The position numbers and the translations under genes were made by a program. From the NCBI RefSeq assembly GCF_054482525.1, contig NZ_CM137006.1: DNA of 64,000 nucleotides. One strand, written 5' to 3'. Under the pieces are notes generated by a model. The model was not told where the DNA came from and made no database searches. It saw nothing but the letters and a program-made list of their open reading frames with translations. The number at the start of each line of letters is the position of its first letter. The first letter of the stretch is position 1. Of this stretch, positions 37,285-54,058 are shown one piece after another.

Positions 37285-37872
37285 TCAGTTAACTGAATCG
37301 ATCCATTGCACACTGTCGGCGGAGAGCGTAAAGGGGGTGGGAGTGCAGATCGCCAGGCTTAAATTATCAAGCTGGCAATGGCTGACCGACAGTGATGACT
37401 GATAGGTGCTGTCTACGCTGACGATTTGCCAGGCGCTGCCGCCACGTTGTTTAACGATGGCTTCTTTGCGTGTCCAGATGCGCCAGAACATTTCCAGTTG
37501 CTGATCAGGATGCACGGCGTCCATCTCAGCGTGTTCCCCGAGGCTGAACACCGCGTTCGCCAGCCAGCGCCAGTTGGCGCGCGGGCGAATCACTTCGATA
37601 TCGCAGCCGACTTCGCCTTCATCGCTCAACAGCAGGGCGATATCGTCACCGCTATGGCTTAAGTTGAACCATAGCGGCGTTTCCGGCGCGAATGCAGGTT
37701 TGCCTTGTTCGCCATAGATGATCTCCGGTAGCGGGGAAAGCGTGTGCGAAAGCAATGCACGCCCCGCCAGCCAGCGTTCGCGTCGTGGACCTTGCGGTGC
37801 TTGATCGCGTAAAGCCGGTGGCAGTGGAGCTGCGCTTAAGGTCGAAACTTTCCCCAGAACTATCCGATACAT
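37285..37872 (-). CDS. acpT: 4'-phosphopantetheinyl transferase AcpT
   Basis: Start refined to MYRIVLGKVSTL, giving 195 aa; PPTase motifs (GEQGKPAF, WTRKEAIVKQ); starts 2 nt after the upstream ketosynthase stop, so it is the last gene of the operon. Confidence 0.85.
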   Translation of the reverse strand: MYRIVLGKVSTLSAAPLPPALRDQAPQGPRRERWLAGRALLSHTLSPLPEIIYGEQGKPAFAPETPLWFNLSHSGDDIALLLSDEGEVGCDIEVIRPRANWRWLANAVFSLGEHAEMDAVHPDQQLEMFWRIWTRKEAIVKQRGGSAWQIVSVDSTYQSSLSVSHCQLDNLSLAICTPTPFTLSADSVQWIDSVN

Positions 37873-37873
37873 A

Positions 37874-39103
37874 TCAGGGCCAACGTTTAATGATGATGGA
37901 TGTATTAATGCCACCAAAGGCAAAGTTGTTACTCTGCAAAAACTCACAATCAACTTTGCGGGCTTCATGCATGATGTAATCCAGCGCGCCACAATTCGGG
38001 TCTGGTTTATTCAGGTTTAGCGTAGGCGCAAACCAACCTTCGCGCATCATTTGCAGACTCATCCAGGCTTCGAGCGCGCCACAGGCACCAAGCGTATGAC
38101 CAAAATAACTTTTCAGCGAGGAGAGCGGCACATTATCACCGTAAATGGTTGCTGTCGCCAGACTTTCTGCCATATCACCGCGATCGGTCGCCGTACCATG
38201 CGCTGAAATATAGCCGATATCTTGTGCGCTTAACCCGGCGATTTTCAGCGATTGCTCCATACAATACTGCATGGTTTCGCGCTGCGGCTGGGTAATATGT
38301 GCCGCGTCGCAGTTAGTCGCAAAGCCGACGATTTCACCGTAAATGGTCGCGCCGCGCGCTTTGGCGTGCTCCAGTTCTTCGAGAATGAGCGTACCTGCGC
38401 CTTCACCAATCACCAGCCCGTCGCGGTTTTCATCGAACGGTGAAGGTGTGGTTTTCGGCGCATCATTGTGCTGGCTGGTGGCGAAAAGCGTATCAAATAC
38501 CGCTGCTTCTGAAGGGCATAACTCTTCGGCACCACCAGCAACCATCACCGTTTGATAACCGTGGCGAATGGCTTCCCACGCATAACCGATTGCCTGGCTG
38601 CCGGAGGTACAGGCGCTGGAGGTTGGAATCACCCGCCCGCGCAGGCCGAAAAAGAGGCCAGTATTAACGGCGGTGGTGTGTGGCATCATCTGCACATAGG
38701 TGGTGCCAGTGATGTTGTTCGTGTGCTTTTCCGTCAGCATGGTGGCGAACTCGCTCACCGGGCCGGTACTGCCGGTCGATGAACCGTACGCAATGCCCGT
38801 TTCGCCGCTGGTTAATATCGGATCGCCAATCAACCCTGCCTGCTCTAATGCCAGCTCTGTCGCACGGGTCGACATTTGCGACACGCGGCCCATCGCACGG
38901 ATACGCTTGCGGGTGTAATGCTCCGGCAGCGTAAAATCATCAACAGGCGCGCCAAGCAGGGTGTGCAGACCATCGTAGACCTGCCACTCCGGCATTTTGC
39001 GCACTGCATTCTCATACGCCAGCAGACGCGCGGAAACGTCCTGCCAGTTTTCACCAAAGGCAGTCACGCCGCCCATTCCTGTAATCACTACGCGACGTGT
39101 CAT
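37874..39103 (-). CDS. apeR: Beta-ketoacyl-ACP synthase (FabB/FabF-like), APE cluster, ApeR position
   Basis: 409 aa; active-site context IPTSSACTSGSQAIG and C-terminal HTLGACG. Confidence 0.8.
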   Translation of the reverse strand: MTRRVVITGMGGVTAFGENWQDVSARLLAYENAVRKMPEWQVYDGLHTLLGAPVDDFTLPEHYTRKRIRAMGRVSQMSTRATELALEQAGLIGDPILTSGETGIAYGSSTGSTGPVSEFATMLTEKHTNNITGTTYVQMMPHTTAVNTGLFFGLRGRVIPTSSACTSGSQAIGYAWEAIRHGYQTVMVAGGAEELCPSEAAVFDTLFATSQHNDAPKTTPSPFDENRDGLVIGEGAGTLILEELEHAKARGATIYGEIVGFATNCDAAHITQPQRETMQYCMEQSLKIAGLSAQDIGYISAHGTATDRGDMAESLATATIYGDNVPLSSLKSYFGHTLGACGALEAWMSLQMMREGWFAPTLNLNKPDPNCGALDYIMHEARKVDCEFLQSNNFAFGGINTSIIIKRWP

Positions 39104-39831
39104 AACATCCCTCCGTTGATGGAAATAACCTGGCGGGTGACGTAACCCGCAATATCAGACATTAAATAGCTGGCAAGCCCGGCAACTTCTTCCGCCTGGC
39201 CCATGCGTTTCATGGGGATCATCGACATTGCCTCTTTCAGAGCGCTCTCTTCCATTTCGATCATCCCGGTATCAATAAGCCCCGGCGCGATGCAGTTGAC
39301 GGTGATTTTGCGCTTCGCGAGTTCGATAGCCAGTGCTTTTGTTGCGCCGATAATTCCGGCTTTGGCAGCGCTGTAGTTCACCTGTCCGCGATTGCCCATC
39401 ACGCCGGAAACCGAGGACAGCGTGATGATTCGTCCACCCTGGCGTGCGCCGATCATCGGCATAATGCACGGCTGAATGACGTTGTAGAAACTGTCGAGGT
39501 TGGTGTGGATCACCGCATCCCAGTCGTCATCGCTTAAAGCCGGAAAAGCGGCATCGCGGGCGATCCCGGCGTTACTAACCACGCCGTACCAGGCACCGTG
39601 TTGCGCGATCTCGTGCTCCAGCACTTCCCGACACTGTTCGCGGTTTGCGACGTCGAAACTGAGCAAACGCCCGTTACCACCGTTAGCGACAATGGCATTC
39701 AGCGTTTCCTGAGCGCCTGCGGCGTCACGGTGATAGTGAACGCCAATGTTAAAACCGTCTGCCGCCAATTGGCAGGCGATGGCGCGACCAATGCCTTTGC
39801 TGGCACCAGTAACCAGAACTGAACGACTCAT
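39100..39831 (-). CDS. apeQ: 3-oxoacyl-ACP reductase (SDR, FabG-like), ApeQ position
   Basis: 243 aa; Rossmann motif TGASKGIGRAIA and catalytic YSAAK. Confidence 0.85.
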   Translation of the reverse strand: MSRSVLVTGASKGIGRAIACQLAADGFNIGVHYHRDAAGAQETLNAIVANGGNGRLLSFDVANREQCREVLEHEIAQHGAWYGVVSNAGIARDAAFPALSDDDWDAVIHTNLDSFYNVIQPCIMPMIGARQGGRIITLSSVSGVMGNRGQVNYSAAKAGIIGATKALAIELAKRKITVNCIAPGLIDTGMIEMEESALKEAMSMIPMKRMGQAEEVAGLASYLMSDIAGYVTRQVISINGGML

Positions 39832-40295
39832 CAGGACGCTCCTTGTTGAAACAGGGTGGTAAGTTCTTCCGCGGTCGGCTGGAAGGTGTTAATGCGGCCC
39901 GTTGCTTCGCCGTCGTTGATACTGCACTCAAAACTGCCGAAGCGATCGTCTTGCATCAGGAGTTTGACGGTAATGGTCAGCGTCTGGCCTGCGGGCAGAA
40001 TGCCAGCGGCGCAAAGCAATTCACGTGCGCCCAGTACCATCCCTAACTCAATACTGTTTTTGCCCTGCTGGTGGCGATGCCAGCCAGACCAGACGCCGAC
40101 GGTTTGCGCCATCAATTCAAGGGCAAACCAGCCAGGGAGATTGCCGTCCGGGTCGAGAAACGGTGCCAGTACGCCACTGGGCGAAACCGTCACGCGGCAC
40201 ACCGCGCTGTCATCGCTGACGCTCACCACGTCTTCCAGCAGTAACATGGGCGCGTCGTGGGGCAGATAAGCGCCGGGGGATAAATAGTGGCTCAC
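39831..40295 (-). CDS. apeP: Hotdog-fold 3-hydroxyacyl-ACP dehydratase (FabA/FabZ-like), ApeP position
   Basis: 154 aa; LPHDAPMLLLEDVV... typical of FabA/FabZ-like dehydratases; overlaps both neighbours. Confidence 0.7.
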   Translation of the reverse strand: MSHYLSPGAYLPHDAPMLLLEDVVSVSDDSAVCRVTVSPSGVLAPFLDPDGNLPGWFALELMAQTVGVWSGWHRHQQGKNSIELGMVLGARELLCAAGILPAGQTLTITVKLLMQDDRFGSFECSINDGEATGRINTFQPTAEELTTLFQQGAS

Positions 40296-41470
40296 GAAAC
40301 CCTCCCGAGCAGAATGCTGGCGTTATTGCCGCCAAAGGCGAAGGAATTGGACAGGATCACCGGACGTGCCAGCGGCTGTGGTTGTTCGATAATGCCGCAC
40401 GGTGGCAGCGTGGGATCGCGCGGCGACAGGCTGAAGTCCTGAGCGAGCAGCGGTAAATCACGCTGTAAAATCAACATGCTGATTGCCGCCTCGGTAATGC
40501 CCGCCGCGCCCAGCGTGTGTCCGGTCAAATGTTTGGTGGAACTGCAAGGTACGCGTTCGCCAAACAGGGCGTTAACCACCATCGATTCAATCTGGTCGTT
40601 GAGTTGTGTGGCGGTACCGTGCAGGTTGATATAGCCGACGTCATCTGGCGTAAGCTGCGCATCGGTCAGCGCCTGGTTAATGGCGCGGATCGCCCCTTCG
40701 CCCTGCGGATGCGGGGCCGAAATATGGTAAGCGTCGCTCGATTCACCAACGCCCAGTAACGCGATGGGCTGCGGTTCACGGGTTAATAACATCAGTCCCG
40801 CCCCTTCGCCAATGGTGATACCTGCGCGGTCACGACCAAACGGCTGACATAAGGTGGGCGAGAGCGATTCGAGGCTGTGAAAACCGTTAATCGGCATCCG
40901 GCTCAGAGTATCTGCGCCACCCACAATGGCGGCATCGACCAGCCCCGCTTCGATAAGCCTGCGCCCGCTGATCATCGCTCTGGCGCTGGAAGAGCAAGCG
41001 GTTGAAAGGGTATAAGCCGGGCCATCGAGCGCCAGCCAGTGGCTGAGAAAGCGCGACGGATCGCCAAGTTCCTGTTGCGCGTAGTGCCATGTGGTGCTCG
41101 GCTGTCCGTTGGTGCGCAGGTTAACGTGCGTGTCGCCCTCATGCAGGCCGGAGGTGCTGGTGCCAAGTACAATCGCGATGCGCTCGTGACCATATTTCGC
41201 GATAGCGTCATCAACCTGCGGCTGGATCTGCGCCAGCGCCGCCAGCAGGATCTGATTGTTGCGCGAGCGGTGCGCAGCGAATTTTTCGGGGATAAGCGGA
41301 AGCTCGCCATCCACGCCAGCCAGGACCGCCTGCGGATGCCCCTGCAACCAGCCTGCGCGCGGACGCATGCCGGGAGCGACACCGCGAGTCAGGTTGGCTG
41401 CGATCTCATCAAGGTTATTTCCCAGGGCGTTGATCATGCCGACGGCGGAAATATAAATCATATCAGTCAC
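40292..41470 (-). CDS. apeO: Beta-ketoacyl-ACP synthase, ApeO position
   Basis: 392 aa; active-site Cys context YTLSTACSSSARAM; HLTGHTLGAAG near the C-terminus. Confidence 0.8.
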   Translation of the reverse strand: MTDMIYISAVGMINALGNNLDEIAANLTRGVAPGMRPRAGWLQGHPQAVLAGVDGELPLIPEKFAAHRSRNNQILLAALAQIQPQVDDAIAKYGHERIAIVLGTSTSGLHEGDTHVNLRTNGQPSTTWHYAQQELGDPSRFLSHWLALDGPAYTLSTACSSSARAMISGRRLIEAGLVDAAIVGGADTLSRMPINGFHSLESLSPTLCQPFGRDRAGITIGEGAGLMLLTREPQPIALLGVGESSDAYHISAPHPQGEGAIRAINQALTDAQLTPDDVGYINLHGTATQLNDQIESMVVNALFGERVPCSSTKHLTGHTLGAAGITEAAISMLILQRDLPLLAQDFSLSPRDPTLPPCGIIEQPQPLARPVILSNSFAFGGNNASILLGRVS

Positions 41471-42047
41471 CTAAGTATTGAATGGTGATGTGGTATTTAA
41501 AGACATGCTGCTCAATGCTGATTGGCACGCGTTTGCCCTTGCGATTCAAATAGGTGATTTCCGTGACCAGCTTGCCGCTGGCGTTACGCAGCTCGCGTTT
41601 GTCACCGTTGTCGCGAAGTGTCCAGCCAGTGGGAAGTTGCGGCTGCCAGGCGCTAATCGGCCAGTGGCTGAGCATCACGTCAGCCAGTACCTGACTTGCG
41701 GGCGGTAACTGTGGGACGACGATCGATTGCTCGGCGCGTAGCCCTTGCGCATCGTAGGTCACCAGAAACAGGCGAATGCCGACCGACGACAGTCCGGCAA
41801 GGGTGATTTTCTGGTCGTCGGCGTTAAGCATCACTAGCAGCGACTGGGTTTTGCCGTTGAAGCTGCCGGTCAACAGTTGCTGGGAATTGACGGCGGGTGA
41901 AATCCCCGGCGCAGGCAGCGTGATGCGCGTGCCAGGTTGCAGCCACGCTTGCGGGCGGCCTTCCTGTTCTGGTTGCGAGTGGCTACAGCCGGTGAGGATA
42001 AGCGTAGCGGTCAGGGCGAACGCTCGCCAGAATGTGGGTTTGATCAT
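41463..42047 (-). CDS. apeN: Lipoprotein (DUF3261-like), ApeN position
   Basis: 194 aa with lipoprotein signal peptide MIKPTFWRAFALTATLILTGC. Confidence 0.65.
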   Translation of the reverse strand: MIKPTFWRAFALTATLILTGCSHSQPEQEGRPQAWLQPGTRITLPAPGISPAVNSQQLLTGSFNGKTQSLLVMLNADDQKITLAGLSSVGIRLFLVTYDAQGLRAEQSIVVPQLPPASQVLADVMLSHWPISAWQPQLPTGWTLRDNGDKRELRNASGKLVTEITYLNRKGKRVPISIEQHVFKYHITIQYLGD

Positions 42048-44362
42048 TTTTTTGTTCTCTTTTTATCGGGCATGGCCAGCGGCGAAAGCAGGAAGGCGGT
42101 GAAAATACCGCTCACCAGCACAATGCCAAAACTGCTGATGGCCTGGGTGGCGCTGAATACCAGCATTCCCAGCGTCAGCAAGGTGGTGAGCATTGCCAGC
42201 GTGATCGCCAGTAGCGAAGTTAATGGTGTGCCGCGCGGATTACTGAAAAACAGCGTGTAGTTGATGCCGATGCCAAGCACCAGTACCAGCGCCAGCAGCG
42301 AAAAGAGATTCACCGCCTGCCCGCTCATCGCCAGCACCGCCAGACCGCAGCCCAGTGAAAGCACCGAAGGCACCAGGCTGATAAACCCTTTGCGCCAGCC
42401 GAGGCGGGCCACTGCGCCGCAGGCAATTACTGCCAGCGCCACCAGCAACAAGCCGGTTAACACATAACGGTAAAGTGCGAACAATTCATCAAAGGTGTTT
42501 TTGCGATCAACCCAGGCAATGCCACAAGGGTAATAGCTGGAGATTTCCTGTAGCGCCGCGCTATTTTTAACCCCTTCAACCGGCACCAGCACGCCGCTTG
42601 CGCCATTTTCCAGCGTCAGCCACAGCAGACGCCAGCCTTCACTGGCGGGGCTTGCCAGCCATTCATCAACCTTCACTGGCATGGCGTTAAGATCCGGGTT
42701 CACCGCCGTCAGCCCGGCATTTTGCAGTGCTTTTGTTACCGTCGGGGCAGCCGTTTTCAGCAGGTCTAAATCTTCCTCCTGCCGCGCCAGGGAGTTCAGC
42801 GGAATGGTGCGGTAGTTGCTGATAAGGCCGTCTTTTTTCGCTTTCTCCAGCGAGGTGGTAAATGTCTCCAGCCGTCCCAAGGTTTGCTGTGACGAATCGC
42901 CGTAAACCACAAACCATTTTTGATCGACGCTTTGTCCGGTCAGGGCGGTGATGGCTTTCTCCTGCGCCAGAATATGCTGCGGTAGCGCCTGTAACTGCGA
43001 GATATCGTCATCGACGCACAGCATTGACATCCCCGCCAGCGAAAACAGCGCCAGCGCGACGGGCAGACCCCGCGACAGTTTTTTATTACGCCGCCACGCT
43101 GCCAGCCAGCGCAGCATCAGCGCCATCGCTGGAACCGGACGCACCGGCAGGCCACGGCACAGCCACGGATGCCAGAACAGGACGGTCAGACAGGAGGCGC
43201 TCAACCCGACGGCGGCAAAAATCGCCATCTGGCGAATGCCGGGGAAGGGGGCGAGCATCATAATCAGATACGCCGCCACGGTGGTGAGCAGCGCCAGCAG
43301 CAGGGCATTGCGCACTTTCGCCAGGCTTTGCCACGGCGAAACGTCATTGCCGTGCACCATCCGCTCGGTGAGGTAATAGAGCGTGTAGTCAGCGGAAATG
43401 CCGATAACGCTCATGCTCATCACCAGCGTCATCAGGTGTAATTCGCCGAAAATCAACAAGGTGGCGACCGTTCCCGCCAGCGCGCCGATGCCGATGGAAA
43501 TCACACACATCAGCAACGGGCGCAAAGAGCGGAACACCGCCACAATCAGCAATATCACCCCCAGCAGCGTTGCCACGCCCAGGGTGGAGATATCCTGCTT
43601 CGCCTGTTGGCTGGCGTAATCGCTGTAAAACACCGTGCCGCGTGAGAGCAACTGAGCCTGCGGGTAACGCGTTTTCAGATCCTTTTCCAGCGTATTCAGG
43701 GTCGTGATGAGCTGGTGGGTTTGCTGCATATCAAACGACGATCCCGCCAGTTCGCCGTGCAGCAGATACCAGTAGTTGCCCTGGGGATCCTGCGTCACCA
43801 GCCAGCCGTCCATCAGCCGCAAACGCTGGCCGTTTTTCGCCATCGCCAGCTGCGAGCCACGCATTAACATCAGCGGATCGTTTTGCAGCTCCTTACCGCT
43901 TACCCCGGAGAACGCAGAATAAAGCTGGGAGAGGATCCACTGCGCCTGCGCTTCGCCGCCGTTTTGCAGGCGCGCGCGGGTGTCGGGGTCAATCAGACCG
44001 TTGCGATGCTGCCAGAAAAACGCTCCCCACGCCTGCTGGCTGGCGGCATCCATTGGCCCTTTAACGTCGCCGAGCGCAGCGGATTTTTGCAGCAGCGTCA
44101 GCCACTCCTGAGCGACCCTGGGATTAGCCTCTTTACCGGGGCTGACCAGCCACACCAGTTGGCGGTCCAGACGCTGCATAAAGCCGTCATTCAGCGCTGG
44201 GGGAATATCGCCCATCGCCTGTTTGGGTAACATAGCCAGTACGCTACTGTTCAGTCGTGATTGCGGCAACAGGATCAGCAACGCCGCCGCCATGACCAGG
44301 CAGACGATCCCCCATAACAGCGCCGGGCGTTTACTGGGCGGCAAAACGTTGGCGTTCGTCAT
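42044..44362 (-). CDS. apeM: MMPL/RND-superfamily membrane exporter, ApeM position
   Basis: 772 aa with two blocks of TM helices separated by soluble domains. Confidence 0.75.
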   Translation of the reverse strand: MTNANVLPPSKRPALLWGIVCLVMAAALLILLPQSRLNSSVLAMLPKQAMGDIPPALNDGFMQRLDRQLVWLVSPGKEANPRVAQEWLTLLQKSAALGDVKGPMDAASQQAWGAFFWQHRNGLIDPDTRARLQNGGEAQAQWILSQLYSAFSGVSGKELQNDPLMLMRGSQLAMAKNGQRLRLMDGWLVTQDPQGNYWYLLHGELAGSSFDMQQTHQLITTLNTLEKDLKTRYPQAQLLSRGTVFYSDYASQQAKQDISTLGVATLLGVILLIVAVFRSLRPLLMCVISIGIGALAGTVATLLIFGELHLMTLVMSMSVIGISADYTLYYLTERMVHGNDVSPWQSLAKVRNALLLALLTTVAAYLIMMLAPFPGIRQMAIFAAVGLSASCLTVLFWHPWLCRGLPVRPVPAMALMLRWLAAWRRNKKLSRGLPVALALFSLAGMSMLCVDDDISQLQALPQHILAQEKAITALTGQSVDQKWFVVYGDSSQQTLGRLETFTTSLEKAKKDGLISNYRTIPLNSLARQEEDLDLLKTAAPTVTKALQNAGLTAVNPDLNAMPVKVDEWLASPASEGWRLLWLTLENGASGVLVPVEGVKNSAALQEISSYYPCGIAWVDRKNTFDELFALYRYVLTGLLLVALAVIACGAVARLGWRKGFISLVPSVLSLGCGLAVLAMSGQAVNLFSLLALVLVLGIGINYTLFFSNPRGTPLTSLLAITLAMLTTLLTLGMLVFSATQAISSFGIVLVSGIFTAFLLSPLAMPDKKRTKK

Positions 44363-44936
44363 CGGTCAGTTGCGCTGGCGTCAGTTGATGTTGGGTAAGA
44401 GCGATATCGGTGCGATCGCCCTGTTTATCATTAAGCTGAATGCTCTCCAGATAGGTTTGCCCGGCGAGATCGATGGTGTTGAAAATTTTATCCAGCGGCG
44501 TGGTGGTCGGCGTCAGGCGCAGTGTCCAGCGGCCTTCGCCTTTGTCAGCAAATTCGACGCGGAAGTTTTGTTCCAGCACTTTGCGATCGGCCTGGAACAG
44601 CGCGCGCAGCAGGTGGTTAAACTGGAACATCTGCGGGTTATTTTCTGCCGTGATAATTTGCGGCGGCTGACCGTTGATCACCTGCACCATGCGTTTATCG
44701 TCCAGCAATAGTTGCATGGGGAACGGTGAGGTTTGATCCCACAACAGCCCCTGGTCGCGGGCGATCAACATCTGGCCCTGAGATCGTAGCGGCTGCGGCA
44801 GATCTTTAATCGTCCGGGTTTGATCGAAATGGGCGCGGATCACTGGCTGTTCGGTAAAGCGTTGCTGAAGATCGTCCAGGTTCAGGGCGCTCACAAACGG
44901 GCTAATCAGCAGCGCCAGCAGCGGTAAAAATTTCAT
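44331..44936 (-). CDS. apeL: LolA-like outer-membrane lipoprotein carrier protein, ApeL position
   Basis: 201 aa with signal peptide MKFLPLLALLISPFVSALNLDDL; ATGA overlap with the upstream gene. Confidence 0.65.
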   Translation of the reverse strand: MKFLPLLALLISPFVSALNLDDLQQRFTEQPVIRAHFDQTRTIKDLPQPLRSQGQMLIARDQGLLWDQTSPFPMQLLLDDKRMVQVINGQPPQIITAENNPQMFQFNHLLRALFQADRKVLEQNFRVEFADKGEGRWTLRLTPTTTPLDKIFNTIDLAGQTYLESIQLNDKQGDRTDIALTQHQLTPAQLTDDERQRFAAQ

Positions 44937-45355
44937 GGTTTGACTCCCATGCGTTCAAACAGAATATCGGGGCTGACAAAGCACAGTTCGCGGCTTTGCT
45001 CGTCGACCGCGACCTGAATGGTGTATCCGGTGGTGGCGCGTTTTCCCGTTTCGGCATCGAAAATCTGATAGCCAATCCGCAGACGGTTTTCGAACTCTTC
45101 GATATGCGCACGCACGCGGATGCGTTGCTCAAAGGTGAGGGCGTGGCGATATTTCACCCTCGCATCGACCACTGGCCACAAATAACCGGACTCTTTCATC
45201 TGCCGATAGCCGTAATTGAACTGGTTGAGCAGCGCCTCGCGGGCCACTTCAAAGTAGCGAAAATAGTTACCGTGCCAGGCCACGCCCATCATATCGACGT
45301 CGTGAAAGGGAATGGTCAGCTCGACTTCAGCGGTAAATCGGGGATCGTTAAGCAC
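44933..45355 (-). CDS. apeK: Hotdog-fold acyl thioesterase (4HBT family), ApeK position
   Basis: 140 aa; N-terminal ...IPFHDVDMMGVAWHGNYFRYFEVAREALL typical of 4HBT/YbgC-type thioesterases. Confidence 0.7.
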   Translation of the reverse strand: MLNDPRFTAEVELTIPFHDVDMMGVAWHGNYFRYFEVAREALLNQFNYGYRQMKESGYLWPVVDARVKYRHALTFEQRIRVRAHIEEFENRLRIGYQIFDAETGKRATTGYTIQVAVDEQSRELCFVSPDILFERMGVKP

Positions 45356-45358
45356 CCT

Positions 45359-47035
45359 TTACTCCTTGTCCTGGACTTCCGGCAGTTGCCAGAAATCGAA
45401 AAAATTAAACCAGTCGAGGGGGGACTGGAGCGCGTAATATTCCAGACGCGCGGCGTAATGATCGATAGCGTTTTGCAGCGCCTGCTGGCGTTCGCCACGC
45501 GGCAACAGCAGCGGGTCGGCAAAGGTTTCGCAGTGAATATGCAGCTTGCCGTGCTGGCGCAGCGCGAAAATCAGATTCACCGGGCAGCGCAAAATAGACG
45601 CAAGAATAAACGGCCCCTGCGGGAAGGGCGCAGGCTGGCCCATAAACGGACTCCAGCAGACTCGCCAGTCGCCGCCGCGTTGCGGGTTGACGGCGATGCG
45701 GTCACCGACAATCGCCACCCATTCGCCGTTATCCAGCTTCTCTTTGAGCAGGATGGCGGTTTCTGGGCCGATATCCGTCACCGGGAGCAGGTTGATGCCT
45801 GCCTGCGGGGCCATCTCCTGCATTATCTGTTTAAAGCGTTGGGCGTTTTCGCTAAACACCAGCGCGTTAATGGTTTTGTAGCCCTGAATTTTTGCCAGCG
45901 CCCGGCACACTTCCACATCGCCAAGATGCGAGGCCAGCAGCAATTTGCCGCGCGGATCGCTGACGTTAAGTGCCGCTTCTGCGCCTGGTGCAAACAGCAC
46001 ATCACGCCCGAGTTGCAGCTCGCCGCGCCAGCTGGCGATTTTGTCGAGCATGGCGTTGCCGAAACGTAGAAAGTGCTGATAGCTGTTGATTTTTGCTGCC
46101 AGTGGTTGTTGTTGGCGCACACGGGCGAGCCAGGCTTGCGACGCTTTACGCGCACGAGCAGCGGTGAGCCAGTAGACGCCCACCACCGGGTAAAGCAGCG
46201 CGGTAAACGCAGTTCTTCCCAGCAGACGCCAGACCAGCAGCATCAGGCGCATTCCCCATAATCCTTTCACTTCGCTCTGCCGCGCCCAGTGGCTGGAAGA
46301 GCTGCGCATCAGCAGTGAAGGAATACGCGGCAACATGCCGAAAAACAGACGTGTGTGCATGAGCGAGATGCGGACGTTATCTTTCAGGGCATCAAAATGC
46401 GAAAGCCCGTCCAGTGGATAGGTGACGCGGGTCGGCACGAAATAGCTGGTGTTTCCCTGCCAGTAGAGGCGCACCATCACTTCAGTGTCGAAATCCATCC
46501 GCTTGCCGATGGTGGCGTATTTTGCCAGTTGCAGCGTTGGCGCAACCGGATAAACGCGAAAGCCGCACATGCTGTCTTTCAGTTGCAGGGAGAGCGTTTC
46601 GATCCATACCCAGACGTGGGTGACCCAGCGCCCGTACAGCCGTGAGCGGGGGATGGAGTCATCGTAAATCGGCTGGCCGGAGATCAGCGCCGCAGGCTGC
46701 TGTTCAGCGAGTGCCAGCAGTTTAGGGATGTCTTCAATCGCGTGCTGACCGTCAGCATCCACCTGTACCGCATGGCTGAAGCCCGCGTCTGCCGCCGCCT
46801 GTAAGCCGCGCATTACCGCCGCGCCTTTGCCTGCGTTTTCTGCCAGGCGAATTAAGGTCACGCCAGGCTGTTCGGCAACCAGATTATCCAGTTGCTGTTG
46901 CGTGGCGGCATCGCTGCCGTCATCCACCACAATACAGGGCAGATTAAATGGCTTAAGACGCGCCAGCACGCCCGGCATCATCGCACCGTGGTTGTAGCAG
47001 GGGATCAACACACAGGGAGAAAAGTTTACCGACAT
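45359..47035 (-). CDS. apeJ: Bifunctional glycosyltransferase family 2 / lipid A-type acyltransferase-like protein, ApeJ position
   Basis: 558 aa; N-terminal GT2 motifs (CIVVDDGSD, VQVDADGQH) and a C-terminal acyltransferase-like domain. Confidence 0.7.
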   Translation of the reverse strand: MSVNFSPCVLIPCYNHGAMMPGVLARLKPFNLPCIVVDDGSDAATQQQLDNLVAEQPGVTLIRLAENAGKGAAVMRGLQAAADAGFSHAVQVDADGQHAIEDIPKLLALAEQQPAALISGQPIYDDSIPRSRLYGRWVTHVWVWIETLSLQLKDSMCGFRVYPVAPTLQLAKYATIGKRMDFDTEVMVRLYWQGNTSYFVPTRVTYPLDGLSHFDALKDNVRISLMHTRLFFGMLPRIPSLLMRSSSSHWARQSEVKGLWGMRLMLLVWRLLGRTAFTALLYPVVGVYWLTAARARKASQAWLARVRQQQPLAAKINSYQHFLRFGNAMLDKIASWRGELQLGRDVLFAPGAEAALNVSDPRGKLLLASHLGDVEVCRALAKIQGYKTINALVFSENAQRFKQIMQEMAPQAGINLLPVTDIGPETAILLKEKLDNGEWVAIVGDRIAVNPQRGGDWRVCWSPFMGQPAPFPQGPFILASILRCPVNLIFALRQHGKLHIHCETFADPLLLPRGERQQALQNAIDHYAARLEYYALQSPLDWFNFFDFWQLPEVQDKE

Positions 47036-47379
47036 AGGCGGATCTTCCCGCTACTGGCGGTGTGGCGGGCGTCACCGTCGTGACGCTGATAGCTAAAGCT
47101 CAGAATCTGGCGTTCTTCCTGCCAGTTAAGCGTGAGCGTGACGCGGTTTTCCGGCAGCAACGGGGACTGGAATTTGATGTTCTGAATAGAGTGAAAACGC
47201 CAGCCAGGCGCGAGCAGGGCAAGCGCGTAGCTCATCGCCCAGTCGATTTGTGCAACTCCTGGAAGTAACGGCTGCACGGCAAAATGACCGCGAAACCAGA
47301 ACAGATCCGCCCTGAGATGCAGAACAATTTCAAGGTGATTCGCTTGTGCCTGATGGCGCTCGATTTCATGGGGCTTCAT
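47026..47379 (-). CDS. apeI: Hotdog-fold dehydratase (FabZ-like), ApeI position
   Basis: Start refined to MKPHEIERH (AGGAG RBS 8 nt upstream); contains FRGHFAVQPLLPGV. Confidence 0.7.
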   Translation of the reverse strand: MKPHEIERHQAQANHLEIVLHLRADLFWFRGHFAVQPLLPGVAQIDWAMSYALALLAPGWRFHSIQNIKFQSPLLPENRVTLTLNWQEERQILSFSYQRHDGDARHTASSGKIRLCR

Positions 47380-48727
47380 GAAATAACTCCTGTAATTGCG
47401 CATAGACACGCTTGTTCATACTGTTTACTGGCATTTCATCAATAACGCGCCAGTAACGCGGAATAGCAACTGGCTCCAGGGTCGGGCGCAGTAATCGCCG
47501 CCAGGTCATTTCCTGGCTATGCCCGCCGCCGTTCTGCCATTGCAGATGAGCTTCGTCATCCAGCACCAGCAAAACGCCGATGCTCTGACGCCCGCCGCGC
47601 GTAACGGGAACTGCCGCCGCCTCGCGAATGCCGTCCAGCGCCAGCAGACGTTGTTCTACTTCCTGGAGTGAAATACGTTTTTCTTCAATCTTAACGATGC
47701 GCCCACGACGCCCCATCAGATGGAACTGACCGTCCTGGCTAAACTGCAAGAGATCGTCGAGCAACAGGCCGTTATCTTCCGCTATCAGCGGTGAAAAGAG
47801 GCGAAATGCTTCACCTTCGACCTGGAAGTGCATACCTGGAAAGGGCCGCCAGCGGCGTTGCTCTTGTTCGCGGTAACGCCAGGCAATGACGCCGGTTTCC
47901 GTGCTGCCGAAGATTTCATCAGGCCAGACGCGCAGCCAGCTCTCGGTATATTGTACGTCCTGCCACGGCAGCTCACCGCCAGCAGAGAGAAGCACCTGAA
48001 CAGGCGGCGGGGATAGCTGAGCATCCAGACGCTTCAAAAATGCCGGGCTGCTGATGAAGATATAGCGATGCTGGTGACTCAATGCGGCAAACTGTTCGAC
48101 ATACCAGAGCATGGCGGCGTGCAGCGGTAATCCCAGCGCCATTGGCAGGAAAACGCGAAAAGTCAGGCCGTACAAATGCTGCGGCAAAACGGAACCGACG
48201 ACACGACATCCGGCAAGACGTGCGCCTAATCGTTCAGCCAGCAGTTCTGCTTCACGGTCCAGCAAATGAACAGGCTTAATTACCCGCTTTGGCTGCCCCG
48301 TAGAACCGGAGGTAAACAGCTCGATATAAGCGTCTGGCGCTATAGCGGCAAAGGTGAATGATTGTGTCGCGACTTGTGGGGAACTTGCTACCAACAGCAA
48401 TGAACCTTGCCAGTTAAGTTCGCTGTCGCTAAGTACACCATCGAACAGTTCACGTTGCTCATTAAGCTGGATGACACGGTTATGCCCCGGAAGCACCGGC
48501 GTTTTTCCGGCGTGTAGCGTGGCGAGCAGGGCAACGATAAATAGATAGCTGTTCTCAAAGCACAGCGCCCAGCGTTCACCCGGCTGTTGCTGCAAGCGGC
48601 AGATAAGTTGCGCGACATCGTGACGCAAATCGCCCAGTGTCCACGAGCTTTCGTCCAGCCACGCAATGGGCGTGTCATCAGGGCGTGGCGCAGTCAGCCA
48701 GCGTGCAAGCGGTAAGGTCTGCTTCAT
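47366..48727 (-). CDS. apeH: AMP-dependent synthetase/ligase (acyl/aryl-CoA or acyl-ACP ligase), ApeH position
   Basis: AMP-binding signature LFTSGSTGQPKRV; start refined to MKQTLPLARWL, giving an ATGA overlap with the upstream gene. Confidence 0.8.
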   Translation of the reverse strand: MKQTLPLARWLTAPRPDDTPIAWLDESSWTLGDLRHDVAQLICRLQQQPGERWALCFENSYLFIVALLATLHAGKTPVLPGHNRVIQLNEQRELFDGVLSDSELNWQGSLLLVASSPQVATQSFTFAAIAPDAYIELFTSGSTGQPKRVIKPVHLLDREAELLAERLGARLAGCRVVGSVLPQHLYGLTFRVFLPMALGLPLHAAMLWYVEQFAALSHQHRYIFISSPAFLKRLDAQLSPPPVQVLLSAGGELPWQDVQYTESWLRVWPDEIFGSTETGVIAWRYREQEQRRWRPFPGMHFQVEGEAFRLFSPLIAEDNGLLLDDLLQFSQDGQFHLMGRRGRIVKIEEKRISLQEVEQRLLALDGIREAAAVPVTRGGRQSIGVLLVLDDEAHLQWQNGGGHSQEMTWRRLLRPTLEPVAIPRYWRVIDEMPVNSMNKRVYAQLQELFHEAP

Positions 48728-49305
48728 GAGCGATCTCTTTTTATCACCTGACGGCGCACCAGCCATTCACCTGCCATTAACGTTCCCATCAACAAATAAG
48801 CAATCATGCCGTTCCAGGCGGTCCATAACGACATATCGCCATAAAGCGCGGTAAAGAGGGCAATTCCGCCGTTAATGATGAAAAAGCCGCACCAGATTTG
48901 CGTGACACGGCGGGTATAGCGCACGCCCTTTTCCGGGAGGTCTGGCTCCTGCAAACGTGCCAGCCGCTCAACTATCGGCATTGTCGACCACAGCGAACCG
49001 CCAAAAACCGCCAGCATGATCGCGTTAACCACTACCGGGTAAAACAGCAGTAGCTGGTGCGTTTTCAACAGAAAGCTGGCGACACACAATGCGATGCCCA
49101 CGACAGCGACGATTTGTGTGACGGCTTGTAGCGGCCCCGCCCGGCGACGGGTCTGGCGCAGGCGCAACAAAAGCAGCAACGCTATTAGCGGCAACAACCA
49201 GTGCAGGCCGTTATGCGCCAGGCCAAACCAAATCACAAACGGCCAGGCGAGCAGCAATAATCCAGTCAGCAGCTTAATCATCGGTAGCGAGCGAATGCCC
49301 GACAT
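48724..49305 (-). CDS. apeG: Small integral membrane protein, ApeG position
   Basis: 193 aa with about five hydrophobic helices. Confidence 0.6.
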   Translation of the reverse strand: MSGIRSLPMIKLLTGLLLLAWPFVIWFGLAHNGLHWLLPLIALLLLLRLRQTRRRAGPLQAVTQIVAVVGIALCVASFLLKTHQLLLFYPVVVNAIMLAVFGGSLWSTMPIVERLARLQEPDLPEKGVRYTRRVTQIWCGFFIINGGIALFTALYGDMSLWTAWNGMIAYLLMGTLMAGEWLVRRQVIKRDRS

Positions 49306-49309
49306 CAGA

Positions 49310-49561
49310 TCAGGCTTCTTGTAGCAGGCGTTCTACAGCCTCTACGACATCCTGAACTGTGCGCACTGCTTTAAACTCTTCCGGCTTGATTTTCTTACCG
49401 GTTTTCTTTTGCAGGTGCACAATCATGTCAACGGCGTCGATGCTGTCCAGTTCCAGATCTTCGTACAGGCGCGCTTCAGGTTTGATGTCCTGCGGATCGA
49501 TTTCAAACAGCTTAACCAGCAGGGCTGAGACTTCCTGATAGACGGTTTGTTGTTCTGTCAT
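49310..49561 (-). CDS. apeF: Acyl carrier protein, ApeF position
   Basis: 83 aa; phosphopantetheine-attachment context LELDSIDAVDM. Confidence 0.85.
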   Translation of the reverse strand: MTEQQTVYQEVSALLVKLFEIDPQDIKPEARLYEDLELDSIDAVDMIVHLQKKTGKKIKPEEFKAVRTVQDVVEAVERLLQEA

Positions 49562-49572
49562 GATGGCTTTCC

Positions 49573-49830
49573 TCAGGCACGTTGCGCAGCAATGAAAGAG
49601 GCCAGAGTGGCGACGGAGAAAAAGTGCTGACGCATCTCTTCACTTTCCGCAGAAAGTACAACGCCATATTGATTTTTCACTGCCAGCCCCAGTTCCAGGG
49701 CATCGATGGAATCCAGTCCTAAACCGTCGCCGAACAGCGGCGCATCGGTCTCGATATCATCAGGAGTCAACTCGTCCAGATTGAGGGTACTGATGATGAG
49801 GTTTTTAATTTCCAGATAAAGCGCTTGCAT
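49573..49830 (-). CDS. apeE: Acyl carrier protein, ApeE position
   Basis: 85 aa; attachment context LGLDSIDALEL. Confidence 0.85.
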   Translation of the reverse strand: MQALYLEIKNLIISTLNLDELTPDDIETDAPLFGDGLGLDSIDALELGLAVKNQYGVVLSAESEEMRQHFFSVATLASFIAAQRA

Positions 49831-50626
49831 TATTTATTCCTGAGAGAGGTAAACAACCTTGTTGTAATTGAAGCAAAAGATGCCGGTTTAACTGCCTTGC
49901 TGCCAGCGCCGGTTCTTGTGAAGTTGCATCGTAAAATTTATTGATTTCAACCCGACCATGGACTTCAACCGTAAAAAACGGCCGGTCAGGTGGAACGTCA
50001 TACCATTTACTTTGTTTATCCAGCAGATGCTCGCTACAGCCGATCGTCACGATGCGTAAATCGCTGGCACAGCGCACGGCAATATTCGCCGCCCCGCGCT
50101 GCAGCGTCATTTTTTCACCGGGCTTCGTTCGCGTGCCTTCGGGGAAAATCAGGATAGTGTCACCCTGTGCCAGTCGCTGTTGGCAGCGGGGTAACAGGGT
50201 TTCAGCTTCGCTGTTGATTAAATAATCTGCCGCCCGCACGACGCCGCCAAGAAAAGGATTTTTTAACAGCGCGCTTTTCACCAGGCAGTCAGTTTCTGGC
50301 ATGACTGACGCCAGCAGCACGTAATCGATCAGCGTGGGATGATTGGCTACGACGAGGCAACCGCGTTCCTGACGTAAAATTTCAGCGCCATCAATACGAT
50401 AATCCAGCACGCCAAGCCCTTTCGCGACAGTTAAAAACAGGCGAAAACTGGCGGCAATGCTGCGACGCGCCAAACGACGGCGGCGGGAAGTATCCCACAC
50501 CAAAACTAACAATATGTTAAACCACACGACAGAAAGCAGCAGGCCGCCGAGACCAAACAGGGCAAAACATAACCCGGTCATGACCAGTCGCCAGGTCCAC
50601 TCCAGACGTGACATCAGCTTACTCAT
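49805..50626 (-). CDS. apeD: Lysophospholipid/1-acylglycerol-3-phosphate-type acyltransferase, ApeD position
   Basis: HX4D motif NHPTLID and N-terminal TM helices; start refined to MSKLMSRLEW (ATGA overlap). Confidence 0.75.
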   Translation of the reverse strand: MSKLMSRLEWTWRLVMTGLCFALFGLGGLLLSVVWFNILLVLVWDTSRRRRLARRSIAASFRLFLTVAKGLGVLDYRIDGAEILRQERGCLVVANHPTLIDYVLLASVMPETDCLVKSALLKNPFLGGVVRAADYLINSEAETLLPRCQQRLAQGDTILIFPEGTRTKPGEKMTLQRGAANIAVRCASDLRIVTIGCSEHLLDKQSKWYDVPPDRPFFTVEVHGRVEINKFYDATSQEPALAARQLNRHLLLQLQQGCLPLSGINNASALSGN

Positions 50627-51345
50627 CTGCGGCTCCAGCGCCATTGCACGCGCTCGCCAGGCAGTGAAAATGCGTCTGCATTTTGTAAATAGTGCTGTAA
50701 AAACAACATGCTTTGCGGCAGTGATGTTTCATTGCCCGCAATGGCTGACTGCGTTTCACATTGCCAGTCATCGCCAGCTTCAATCACCAGCGCGACGGCG
50801 TACGGCCAGGTCGGCATTTCTGATGGCAGTTGTGGGTGATAAAACTCAGGCAGAAAGCCATCAAAATCGACCATCAGCACGCGCTGGTATCCCGCTTGTA
50901 ACAGGCTAAGCACTTCACACAAACCTTGCTGGAAAGTGTCGCGACCAGCAGAAAGCGATGACGAAACGATCGGCTGTTTGGCCGCAATGGTCAGGTTACC
51001 CACGGAAGAGTTGTGTACGGAGAGCGCGAAGTCGGTCGGAGAAAGCGCCTGTTCAGTTGCCAGTGCATGAACAATGCGGTAATTGCGCTCCAGTTCGCCA
51101 TGACGACTGGTATACAAAACGGCGTCTGGCTGATGGCGGCGTAGCATTGCCAGACCGCATTCAACAGCCAGTTTGCTGCCTGAACTAAGGCGGCGGGCGG
51201 TCATCATTGGCAGTTCACTTAATTTTGCCAACGGCGCGGCAGGGTCAATCGCCCACGGCTGGCGCGACCATGCTTGCCATTGCTGCGCTTCGCTAAGTCC
51301 AGGCGCCAGTGCCTGCCAGTCGGTAATATTTAATGTAAATTTCAT
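50623..51345 (-). CDS. apeC: Truncated ketosynthase-like protein without a canonical active-site Cys (chain-length-factor-like), ApeC position
   Basis: About 240 aa, with SVHNSSVGNL where a KS would carry its catalytic Cys; start refined to MKFTLNI (the track start is a TTG). Confidence 0.6.
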   Translation of the reverse strand: MKFTLNITDWQALAPGLSEAQQWQAWSRQPWAIDPAAPLAKLSELPMMTARRLSSGSKLAVECGLAMLRRHQPDAVLYTSRHGELERNYRIVHALATEQALSPTDFALSVHNSSVGNLTIAAKQPIVSSSLSAGRDTFQQGLCEVLSLLQAGYQRVLMVDFDGFLPEFYHPQLPSEMPTWPYAVALVIEAGDDWQCETQSAIAGNETSLPQSMLFLQHYLQNADAFSLPGERVQWRWSRR

Positions 51346-51385
51346 CAACGCGCGCCCGCGGTAAACCAAAATTATTAAGTGACGA

Positions 51386-52453
51386 TTATTTCTTTTGGCA
51401 TATCAAAAGTGTATGCCCAACGCCTAAATTATCGTGGCGCTCTGCTACCTGGAATCCTGCTTTATTCAGATAGTCGTAAAATTTCTCTGCACTATAGAAA
51501 CGGCTGTTACCGTTTGCCATGCAGGTAAAATAAAGTGAGGACGCGTTCAGGCTAAATGATGCTGCTTCAAACCGCTGCGCATCCCAGAACAACTCCATGA
51601 TGCAAACTTTTGCGCCAGGCTTCATTACGCTGGCGATTTTGCTGAGTATGCTAATTATTTGTTCGGGTGAAAAACAGTCTAAAAATTGGCTCATCCACCA
51701 GATATCAGCCTCGCCCGGTAATGGGGCATCGCTTAGCATATCCACCGCATGGAAATCTATGCGATCAGAAAAACCTGCATTCGCGATATTTTCTTTCGCT
51801 AGTACGATTTGTTGTGGCAGATCTAATAACGTCACGGCGATGTTTTCATTGTATTTGCAGCAACGCAAAGCCCACTTACCCGTATTGCCGCCTACATCGT
51901 ACAATGTTGTGGGGTTGTTGGCGAATACATAAGGCAGTGCGGCGTTAAATGCGCCATCTGAATAGTAATGATCAAACGCAAACCAGCTTTCACGAGCGGC
52001 GTCTGGTAATTGTGAAAGTGCCGGATATATCGTCGGCCAGTCGCCAAATACTTTTAACCCGGACGGTTTTCCTTCATTGAGTGAATCGGCGAGGAAGAAG
52101 AGCCCCTGGTAACAGACATCCTGGGTGAAATCCATATTCACGCGAGTCATAGTGTCATGCAGGAGGTAATGACCGATTTTCGCCAGGTAATACATTCCCT
52201 CTTTACAGGTAATAATTCGCCCGCTTAAGCCCATATCTAACAGAACGCTGGCCGCATATTCGTTGATATGGCTATGTTCGGTGATATCAGCCAGCGTTGC
52301 GCCATGTTTGCCTTGCCGATCCAGATATGAAAGTACACCCGCATTACGTAGGCAGAGTGCTGTTTGAAAAAGCATAGGGGCAAAGGCAATGCGTTGAGCT
52401 TCGGTAATCGCATCCAGTGCGCTAAGAGAATCCTGTTCGTACATGTTGGGCAC
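51386..52453 (-). CDS. apeB: SAM-dependent O-methyltransferase, ApeB position
   Basis: 355 aa; methyltransferase fold with YDVGGNTGKWA-type SAM-binding glycine motif; track start is a GTG, first ATG three codons later. Confidence 0.75.
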   Translation of the reverse strand: MPNMYEQDSLSALDAITEAQRIAFAPMLFQTALCLRNAGVLSYLDRQGKHGATLADITEHSHINEYAASVLLDMGLSGRIITCKEGMYYLAKIGHYLLHDTMTRVNMDFTQDVCYQGLFFLADSLNEGKPSGLKVFGDWPTIYPALSQLPDAARESWFAFDHYYSDGAFNAALPYVFANNPTTLYDVGGNTGKWALRCCKYNENIAVTLLDLPQQIVLAKENIANAGFSDRIDFHAVDMLSDAPLPGEADIWWMSQFLDCFSPEQIISILSKIASVMKPGAKVCIMELFWDAQRFEAASFSLNASSLYFTCMANGNSRFYSAEKFYDYLNKAGFQVAERHDNLGVGHTLLICQKK

Positions 52454-52512: not shown

Positions 52513-52890
52513 TTATAAATCTGCGCCCGCTGACAAATTCAGTTGAATATCTTTGTCGAGATTGCGGACCCAGCGATTGTAGTTTTTATGAATTTGTCCG
52601 CCTGACGCTTGTAGGTTCTGGCTATTTTCATAATTGATATCGTAGCTGGATGCCGTGTAGTTAATGCGAATTTCGGCTGAATGATCGCGTGACTGTTGAC
52701 GTGCTTTAATTACGCCTTGTCCGGCTTCGGACATAATCCATTTGCGTTCAACGCCAGCTTTCAGAATCGCTTTTTTCACTTGTTCCTGGGTATGACCAGC
52801 GCTGACGGTTGAGTGAACCTGATCAATTGGCGCAGTACGCGCGCAACCCGCTAAAGCACCCACAACAGCAATAGCCGCAAACCATTTCAT
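52513..52890 (-). CDS. Small lipoprotein, first gene of the operon
   Basis: MKWFAAIAVVGALAGCART (lipobox LAGC), 125 aa; the track ORF start at 52902 gives a 4-residue extension; IS1 lies 14 bp upstream. Confidence 0.6.
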   Translation of the reverse strand: MKWFAAIAVVGALAGCARTAPIDQVHSTVSAGHTQEQVKKAILKAGVERKWIMSEAGQGVIKARQQSRDHSAEIRINYTASSYDINYENSQNLQASGGQIHKNYNRWVRNLDKDIQLNLSAGADL

Positions 52891-52895
52891 GTAAT

Positions 52896-52904
52896 GTCTC
52901 ATTA
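52896..52904. repeat. IS1 target-site duplication, left copy
   Basis: GTCTCATTA directly abutting the IS1 end; identical copy at 53673-53681. Confidence 0.9.
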
Positions 52905-52919
52905 GGTAATGACTCCAAC

Positions 52920-53423
52920 TTATTGATAGTGTTTTATGTTCAGATAATGCCCGATGACTTTGTCATGCAGCTCCACCGATTTTGAAAACGACAGCGACTT
53001 CCGTCCCAGCCGTGCCAGGTGCTGCCTCAGATTCAGGTTATGCCGCTCAATTCGCTGCGTATATCGCTTGCTGATTACGTGCAGCTTTCCCTTCAGGCGG
53101 GATTCATACAGCGGCCAGCCATCCGTCATCCATATCACCACGTCAAAGGGTGACAGCAGGCTCATAAGACGCCCCAGCGTCGCCATAGTGCGTTCACCGA
53201 ATACGTGCGCAACAACCGTCTTCCGGAGCCTGTCATACGCGTAAAACAGCCAGCGCTGGCGCGATTTAGCCCCGACGTATCCCCACTGTTCGTCCATTTC
53301 CGCGCAGACGATGACGTCACTGCCCGGCTGTATGCGCGAGGTTACCGACTGCGGCCTGAGTTTTTTAAGTGACGTAAAATCGTGTTGAGGCCAACGCCCA
53401 TAATGCGGGCGGTTGCCCGGCAT
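52920..53423 (-). CDS. insB: IS1 transposase InsB (expressed as InsAB' by -1 frameshift)
   Basis: 167 aa ORF within IS1, in the -1 frame relative to insA. Confidence 0.9.
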
Positions 53424-53617
53424 CCAACGCCATTCATGGCCATATCAATGATTTTCTGGTGCGTACCGGGTTGAGAAGCGGTGTAAGTGAACTGCAGTTG
53501 CCATGTTTTACGGCAGTGAGAGCAGAGATAGCGCTGATGTCCGGCGGTGCTTTTGCCGTTACGCACCACTCCGTCAGTAGCTGAACAGGAGGGACAGCTG
53601 ATAGAAACAGAAGCCAC
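53342..53617 (-). CDS. insA: IS1 protein InsA
   Basis: 91 aa starting [40 protein letters not shown] (zinc-finger-like). Confidence 0.9.
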
Positions 53618-53672
53618 TGGAGCACCTCAAAAACACCATCATACACTAAATCAGTAAGTTGGCAGCATCACC

Positions 53673-53681
53673 GTCTCATTA
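53673..53681. repeat. IS1 target-site duplication, right copy
   Basis: GTCTCATTA, identical to 52896-52904. Confidence 0.9.
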
Positions 53682-54008
53682 GAACCCCATTAAAGTATTG
53701 TTTTTACGAGTAAAGCAAGATTTAACTGTAATTGCTGGAATCACTATTCTTTATTTAGCGAAAAAATTACTTGTGAGATAAGTCAGTAAGTGCACATCAG
53801 AGTAAAAATTTCTGAAATGACTAAATTACTGCCAGCGGGGACCAACTATAAGTGAGTGAGAAAAATGAGGCAATAAAAATAACAGATTGTTATCAGTGCA
53901 TTCTTTGAGAGGGATTTAATCGCTATTCGGCGTTTATATATATTTGACTTAAGGAATGGTTTTTATAAATTAATTGTCTGAATAATGTTTCTTCATTTCC
54001 TCAAATCA

Positions 54009-54039
54009 AATGGCCACTGTTAGATAAACGGTGGCCATT
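54009..54039 (-). terminator. Stem-loop downstream of yhhT
   Basis: AATGGCCAC-13 nt loop-GTGGCCATT, 20 nt past the yhhT stop, followed on the minus strand by TTGATTTGAGG. Confidence 0.45.
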
Positions 54040-54058
54040 GCCTGCTCAGGAGGTGCTA

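Follow-up and report, generated by a model that had tools for sequence, protein, structure and literature searches.

A recent, simple IS1A insertion at the apeA start codon is predicted to reduce expression of an otherwise intact aryl-polyene operon in Escherichia coli

In a 64,000-nt stretch of DNA (contig NZ_CM137006.1 of assembly GCF_054482525.1; hereafter the window), a complete copy of IS1A is positioned at the very beginning of apeA, the first gene of an aryl-polyene (APE) biosynthetic cluster. We consider this to be the outcome of a simple and recent insertion that has polar consequences for the expression of an otherwise intact operon, and we assign this reading a probability of about 0.75. 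IS1A transposed by simple insertion into TAATGAGAC, a target that overlaps the apeA start codon, in a close relative of E. coli strain PCN033, and the staggered cut and its repair duplicated 9 bp. As far as can be predicted from the sequence, the most likely result is that expression of apeA-R is strongly reduced rather than activated.

The element occupies positions 52905-53672 on the minus strand and is exactly 768 bp long. Members of the IS1 family are recognized by a length of about 768 bp and by imperfect inverted repeats of about 23 bp that start with GGT(A/G)ATG, and this copy agrees in both length and repeats. The right terminal repeat (IRR, 52905-52927) reads GGTAATGACTCCAACTTATTGAT and the reverse complement of the left one (IRL, 53650-53672) reads GGTGATGCTGCCAACTTACTGAT; each is 23 bp long, and the two agree imperfectly, at 18 of 23 positions. 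The insA gene (53342-53617, minus strand) encodes a 91-aa protein that matches the IS1 zinc-binding domain, and it is overlapped by the 167-aa insB' open reading frame (52920-53423, minus strand). Joined via a -1 frameshift, insA and insB' give InsAB' (52920-53617, minus strand). The A6C slippery site, read from the sequence as AAAAAAC on the minus strand at 53360-53366, is presumably where this frameshift takes place, and an identically placed 698-nt CDS is annotated with 'programmed frameshift' in the IS1 copies of two other E. coli loci (L001 and L002). InsB' matched the NCBIfam profile for IS1 family transposases (NF033558; cut-off 100 bits) with 145.6 bits over profile positions 75-199, while InsA scored 91.3 bits over positions 1-81. 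The first-pass annotation had called a complete 768-bp IS1 at 52905-53672, and the call is borne out by the length, the inverted repeats, insA/insB' and the NF033558 match. Inside IRL lies a promoter-like site, CTGCCA-16-TATGAT (53638-53665, minus strand), which is a consensus match only and which we take to mark the position of the IS1 insA promoter, PIRL.

All 768 of the 768 bp (100% identity) recur in numerous copies bearing the annotation 'IS1-like element IS1A family'. Plasmids carry a large share of these identical copies, and a plasmid-borne donor copy is possible. The IS1A of E. coli chromosomes and of IncF/ColV-type plasmids has the same 768 bp, the same inverted repeats, insA/insB' and A6C site, and the same 9-bp duplication; the insertion site is the only respect in which the present copy differs from known ones.

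IS1 is bordered by two copies of GTCTCATTA, a proximal one at 52896-52904, which reads TAATGAGAC on the coding strand and holds the conserved apeA start codon (52902-52900), and a distal one at 53673-53681. The copies are identical at nine of nine positions, with no extension past 9 bp, and the chance of such a match at the exact boundaries of the element is about 4^-9, or 4e-6. When IS1 and one repeat copy were deleted in silico and the flanks joined, the reconstructed empty site was identical to PCN033 (NZ_CP006632.1) at 991 of 991 bases; no bases were lost at the insertion site, and a single TAATGAGAC is found there in all four diverse E. coli alleles compared. Alignment of the window with PCN033 by BLAST gave three collinear blocks without gaps, with 4 + 1 + 1 = 6 mismatches in about 63.2 kb, among them SNPs at 37913 (in apeR) and 54656 (in yhhT). 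Compared with PCN033, the 63 kb are interrupted by IS1 alone, and the blocks on either side of it overlap by the duplicated bases. The identity of the empty site, together with only six SNPs in 63 kb, implies that the insertion was simple and recent, and by this comparison it is younger than a very recent common ancestor with PCN033. A simple, probably recent transposition without flanking deletion had been proposed earlier on the basis of a perfect 9-bp duplication, together with a suggestion to compare IS1-free alleles. The duplication holds at 9/9, and PCN033, which has the same flanks, contiguous and with one repeat copy, excludes a fortuitous duplication and upholds the proposal. The 64-kb window contains no second IS1, and neither a deletion nor an inversion was found adjacent to the element. 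A composite IS1 transposon or an IS1-mediated rearrangement was considered and is ruled out by the presence of a lone IS1 and by the contiguity of its flanks in PCN033.

The interrupted locus is an 18-gene APE cluster, apeA-R, located beside acpT. Its first gene, apeA (52513-52902, minus strand), encodes a lipoprotein that is labelled 'hypothetical protein' in PCN033; the other 17 genes, apeB to apeR, extend over 37874-52453 on the minus strand, all of them full length and with one SNP relative to PCN033 (37913). The phosphopantetheinyl transferase gene acpT (37285-37872, minus strand) follows directly downstream of apeR. All 18 operon genes are intact and have the same lengths as in the PCN033 annotation, and in the PGAP annotation of the identical PCN033 locus they are co-directional, with overlaps or short gaps between them. 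In PCN033 their products are, in order, a lipoprotein, a methyltransferase, a ketosynthase (KS) chain-length factor, a lysophospholipid acyltransferase and two acyl carrier proteins (ACPs; products 1-6); a membrane protein, an AMP-binding enzyme, a FabZ-like dehydratase, a GT2 glycosyltransferase, a thioesterase and a LolA-like protein (7-12); and an MMPL transporter, a DUF3261 protein, a KS, a dehydratase, FabG2 and a further KS (13-18). These products agree gene for gene with apeA-R as listed in Table 1 of the published description of the cluster, a set that includes a COG4648 protein, an adenylating enzyme, an MMPL/RND transporter, two dehydratases, two further KS and a ketoreductase (KR), and in which apeA, encoding a lipoprotein, is the first gene (PMC8253772). 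At the nucleotide level, the window is 91.5% identical to CFT073 c1186-c1204 over 14,954 bp. The collinear gene set and the identity to CFT073 identify the cluster as the E. coli APE cluster in its acpT-linked location, in line with the first-pass label of an 'APE-like operon'. Two features elsewhere in the window can be noted from the PCN033 annotation: a HicA/HicB-type toxin-antitoxin pair (31101-31732, plus strand) between nikR and yhhJ, and a frameshifted gene, annotated as a pseudogene in PCN033, between a permease gene and slp (about 3068-4184 in the window, mapped from L005:26245-27361).

The characterized cluster of CFT073 (PMC8253772) has the same 18 genes in the same order and shares the thioesterase WP_000930891.1. 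The O157:H7 copy on O-island 138 is acpT-linked (De Lay and Cronan 2006, as cited in PMC8253772) and occupies, as in the window, the interval between yhhT and acpT. Homologues of ApeE/F from O157:H7 are AcpT substrates according to the same 2006 study, as cited in PMC8253772. Neither the CFT073 nor the O157:H7 reference cluster has IS1 at the apeA start. The CFT073 copy, however, sits in a different island (PAI-serX), and its nucleotide alignment with the window stops at position 52809, inside apeA; the 5' end of CFT073 apeA, which encodes the signal-peptide region, and all DNA upstream of it (L007:15656-16270) are unrelated to the window. Knowledge of the 'native promoter(s)' of the CFT073 cluster is therefore not transferable to this locus, and the divergence of their 5' regions suggests that the acpT-linked and CFT073 copies probably differ in regulation.

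The exact position of IS1 relative to apeA depends on which of two in-frame ATG codons is used, ATG1 (52902-52900), which gives a protein of 129 aa, or ATG2 (52890-52888), which gives 125 aa. The coding strand of the empty allele has the sequence ...TTTAATGGGGTTC TAATGAGAC ATTAC ATG AAA TGG..., and PGAP places the start at ATG2 in PCN033, O157:H7, 042 and others, and at the equivalent of ATG1 in CFT073. Among the best 120 apeA homologues, 88 encode 129 aa and all 88 start at position 1, whereas at position 5, which corresponds to ATG2, Met occurs in only nine, as against Ile in 37 and Val in 27; positions 2-3 are rich in Lys, like the n-region of a lipoprotein signal peptide. Citrobacter rodentium and C. 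koseri carry an ape cluster at the same yhhS-yhhT locus, and the arrangement GGG(A/G)-N5-6-ATG1 is kept in E. coli and in both of these species, with ATT as codon 5 in Citrobacter. The homologue starts and the Citrobacter orthologues thus identify ATG1, which lies inside the 9-bp target, as the conserved apeA start, and IS1 is 2 nt, not 14 nt, upstream of it. The earlier placement of the element 14 bp upstream of the first gene was correct for the PGAP start at 52888-52890 but does not hold for the conserved one. Since homologues and Citrobacter orthologues favour the longer form, many E. coli apeA records, namely those with the 125-aa PGAP start, probably begin four codons late.

In the empty allele, the native Shine-Dalgarno sequence of apeA (GGGG; 53685-53688, minus strand) is 5 nt upstream of ATG1. 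IS1 lies between the two; ATG1 is now parted by 777 bp from this sequence and from the whole AT-rich upstream region, and GGGG stands 782 nt away. Because the target was duplicated, the proximal copy regenerates ATG1 and the apeA reading frame is intact; upstream of the proximal ATG1 come, at 10 nt, a GGAG motif supplied by IRR and, at 17 nt, the insB' stop codon. The distal copy, together with the native Shine-Dalgarno sequence, opens a three-codon ORF (ATG AGA CGG TGA; 53679-53668, minus strand), and this Met-Arg-Arg-stop ORF has its end within IRL, a short way upstream of the region where the insA promoter of IS1 lies. Two modest points are added here, the corrected geometry, in which the start codon is part of the duplication and the Shine-Dalgarno sequence is split from its ATG, and the likely mis-annotation of the apeA start in many E. 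coli genomes.

Upstream of the insertion, the AT-rich yhhT-apeA intergenic region (53682-54058, minus strand) is the presumed native regulatory region; GC content is 31-36% over 53600-53999, and the spacer measures 391 bp. These values and the sequence itself support the first-pass statement that IS1 separates the first operon gene from the AT-rich region. The upstream neighbour yhhT (54059-55108, minus strand), which encodes an AI-2E family transporter, is co-directional with the operon and untouched by IS1. Homology with K-12-like genomes, which are without the cluster, starts only at about 54063. Just past the yhhT stop codon is a terminator-like hairpin (54009-54039, minus strand) with a 9-bp stem followed by UUUGAUUUG, a U-rich tract; the 78-nt segment containing it folds at -21.9 kcal/mol (z = -3.2). 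An automatic terminator scan with a permitted loop of 3-8 nt missed the hairpin, probably owing to its 13-nt loop. The presence of this hairpin after yhhT implies that the ape operon probably needs its own promoter in the intergenic region. The sole consensus match on the right strand of the spacer is TTGCCT-17-TATAGT (53873-53845, minus strand; 9/12), which is invariant in four E. coli alleles, themselves 99% identical and so uninformative for footprinting, and promoter-like matches in the spacer are at background (four found versus 3.0 +/- 1.6 in shuffled sequences). A native operon promoter within 53682-54058, as proposed at first pass, is plausible in view of the hairpin and the match at 53873-53845. 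Footprinting against the orthologous Citrobacter spacers was uninformative, as these are unalignable except for the Shine-Dalgarno sequence and the ATG. No Rfam match at E <= 1 was obtained for the spacer or the junction, and for the acpT-linked cluster a search of the literature brought up neither a mapped promoter nor a mapped transcription start site.

A promoter might instead have been created by the insertion itself, and the first-pass annotation had allowed for an outward IS1 promoter. IRR does bear an outward -35-like hexamer, TTGGAG, 8 nt from its tip, and IS1 is documented to form hybrid promoters from such a hexamer and a -10 element in the flank, as reported for afaA and acrEF (PMC8764528, PMC5526668). 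However, there is no -10 hexamer 16-18 bp from TTGGAG: the flank offers CATTAC, ATTACA and TTACAT, in none of which A2 and T6 are present together, and 9/12 is not reached by any combination. A transcript from a promoter of this kind would, moreover, start at ATG1, beyond it or within the coding sequence, and have no leader for apeA. No credible outward promoter was detected in the junction or in the last 100 bp of IS1, even at relaxed thresholds. A -35-like hexamer without a -10 partner predicts no new promoter, and activation of the operon by a hybrid promoter is accordingly regarded as highly improbable. The suggestion of an outward IS1 promoter finds no support, as IS1 ends carry half a promoter (PMC5526668, PMC8764528): a 600-bp IS1 terminus had no reporter activity alone, activity depending on the adjacent 20 bp (PMC5526668). 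In E. coli ST131, genes with IS1 upstream in the same orientation responded differently, afaA being raised, osmB lowered and ugd unchanged, with the outcome hinging on the presence of a -10 box and a hybrid promoter operating at afaA (PMC8764528). As in the present case, IS1 in these strains lies directly upstream of the gene, in the same orientation, and in or beside a genomic island, but here it has, in addition, come between the Shine-Dalgarno sequence and the start codon. Since there is no -10 box at the right distance, a decrease like that of osmB is to be expected rather than an increase like that of afaA.

The genes insA and insB' are on the minus strand like the operon, so that the reported common orientation of IS1 and the cluster is confirmed. 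If the operon promoter is in the upstream region, its transcripts must cross IS1 from IRL to IRR. IS1 insertions are classically polar through Rho-dependent termination. After the insA stop codon, the insB' frame of about 500 nt would rarely be translated, and Rho-dependent termination is therefore expected to remove most read-through. Read-through of transcripts initiated at the native promoter or at the InsA-repressed PIRL could leave a small residual expression, and such a transcript may be translated from ATG1, with the IRR-borne GGAG lying 10 nt upstream of it, or else from ATG2. The classic polar IS1 insertions of the 1968-1976 literature hit the gal and lac operons, in their leaders or early genes. 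As in gal and lac, IS1 here separates the structural genes of a long operon from their presumed promoter, and Rho-dependent polarity on every gene downstream is likewise expected; those insertions, however, were laboratory-selected null mutations, whereas the present one occurs as a natural allele and, through the duplication, leaves the first gene's reading frame preserved. Insertion of IS1 or IS5 activates the silent bgl operon, where the element is located upstream of an intact promoter and relieves silencing. The ape locus resembles bgl in that the element has entered the regulatory region of a horizontally acquired or cryptic operon, a region that is AT-rich and probably bound by H-NS. 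Nevertheless, at ape IS1 stands at the start codon and downstream of the presumed promoter, which makes the bgl mechanism of activation inapplicable.

Transcription from within the element has to be weighed against polarity. The operon might be driven from IS1, with transcripts from PIRL or from the native promoter passing through insA-insB' and out of IRR, and with apeA translated via the IRR GGAG or by re-initiation after the insB' stop codon; its expression would then be low, constitutive and decoupled from native control. PIRL is weak and auto-repressed, which counts against this reading. The common orientation of IS1 and the operon, the PIRL-like site (53665-53638) and the placement of GGAG and of the insB' stop 10 and 17 nt upstream of ATG1 are all compatible with it. 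There is also no convincing intrinsic terminator between insB' and apeA, where terminator-like matches are at background and a weak 5-bp stem (53012-52995) is the one candidate. The persistence of ugd expression behind a same-orientation IS1 (PMC8764528) is a precedent in its favour, while the 600-bp IS1 terminus without reporter signal (PMC5526668) is one against it. On balance, we regard an operon driven from IS1 as unlikely.

The polar reading would also lose its force if the insertion were neutral for most of the cluster, either because the main promoter or promoters are downstream, inside apeA or apeB or beyond, or because the cluster is mostly silent anyway. The APE cluster may give rise to a single polycistronic mRNA or to more than one (PMC8253772), and if there are several mRNAs, internal promoters could keep the downstream genes expressed; an upstream IS1 may also leave expression unchanged (PMC8764528). 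A few promoter-like matches are indeed present in apeB (51683-51654 and 51520-51491). However, internal promoter-like sites are no more common in the operon than in shuffled sequences (ten found versus 8.6 +/- 2.6), there is none in the 59-bp gap between apeA and apeB, and the genes overlap or leave short gaps, which points to co-transcription starting upstream of apeA. The intactness of all 18 genes would fit a neutral insertion, but it is uninformative because the insertion is so recent. A neutral insertion thus appears quite improbable, and polar reduction remains the preferred reading.

To place the insertion within the species, a 120-bp query across the left junction was compared with 5,426 complete E. 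coli genomes from RefSeq, a set that does not include the source strain. IS1 is carried by 4,950 of these genomes, at a median of about 11 places per genome, and the locus (apeA, the spacer and the end of yhhT) is present in 569 of the 5,426, including O157:H7 and strain 042. None of the 5,426 contained the exact IS1-apeA junction. Three apparent full-coverage matches proved to be a piece of the flank and a piece of a different IS1 about 490 bp apart that had been joined by the search. IS1 was likewise absent from beside apeA in all 47 contigs encoding an identical 125-aa ApeA. The junction hence represents an allele specific to the strain rather than a novel type of feature; the IS1A element and this type of event are already well documented, and the effect on the neighbouring operon is within the range described for IS1. 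For tracing the insertion in reads, TGTAATGTCTCATTAGGTAATGACTCCAAC can be used as a k-mer.

Elsewhere in the 991-bp region, IS1 in the same orientation was found in four of the 569 locus-bearing genomes, representing two events. In Eco_23-3511 it is inside apeA with the duplication GCCTTGTCC, and in JX21CE8, 23CRST027 and 23CRST031 it occupies a common site between the yhhT stop codon and the hairpin, with the duplication TGCCTGCTC (checked in JX21CE8 only). In one more genome, an IS1 of opposite orientation lies within yhhT. The nearby IS1 copies in other E. coli locus sequences are at L001:3319-4086, L002:3867-4634 and L017:1045-1742. With about 11 IS1 per 5-Mb genome, approximately one insertion would be expected by chance in 569 genomes x 1 kb. 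There is no clear excess over this expectation, and the evidence for an IS1 hot spot at the locus is not convincing.

Aryl polyenes are outer-membrane lipids; protection of E. coli against oxidative stress and promotion of biofilm formation have been reported for them (PMC8253772). PCN033, to which the window is nearly identical although it belongs to a different assembly, is a swine extraintestinal pathogenic strain. A decidedly doubtful variant is that the cluster has been rewired rather than silenced, apeA-R having become the distal part of the insA-insB' unit, transcribed from PIRL and translated via GGAG from the start codon regenerated by the duplication. If so, aryl-polyene production would be low, constitutive and uncoupled from native control, and, with three other independent IS1 insertions within about 1.5 kb in other strains, the locus could be a recurrent target of tuning by IS1. 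Otherwise, the event is routine, a further case of IS1 inserting at a strain-specific site. An intact cluster that is cut off from its upstream region provides a natural near-isogenic contrast to PCN033-like strains, and this contrast could show both the contribution of the chromosomal cluster in an extraintestinal pathogenic background and the location of its promoter.
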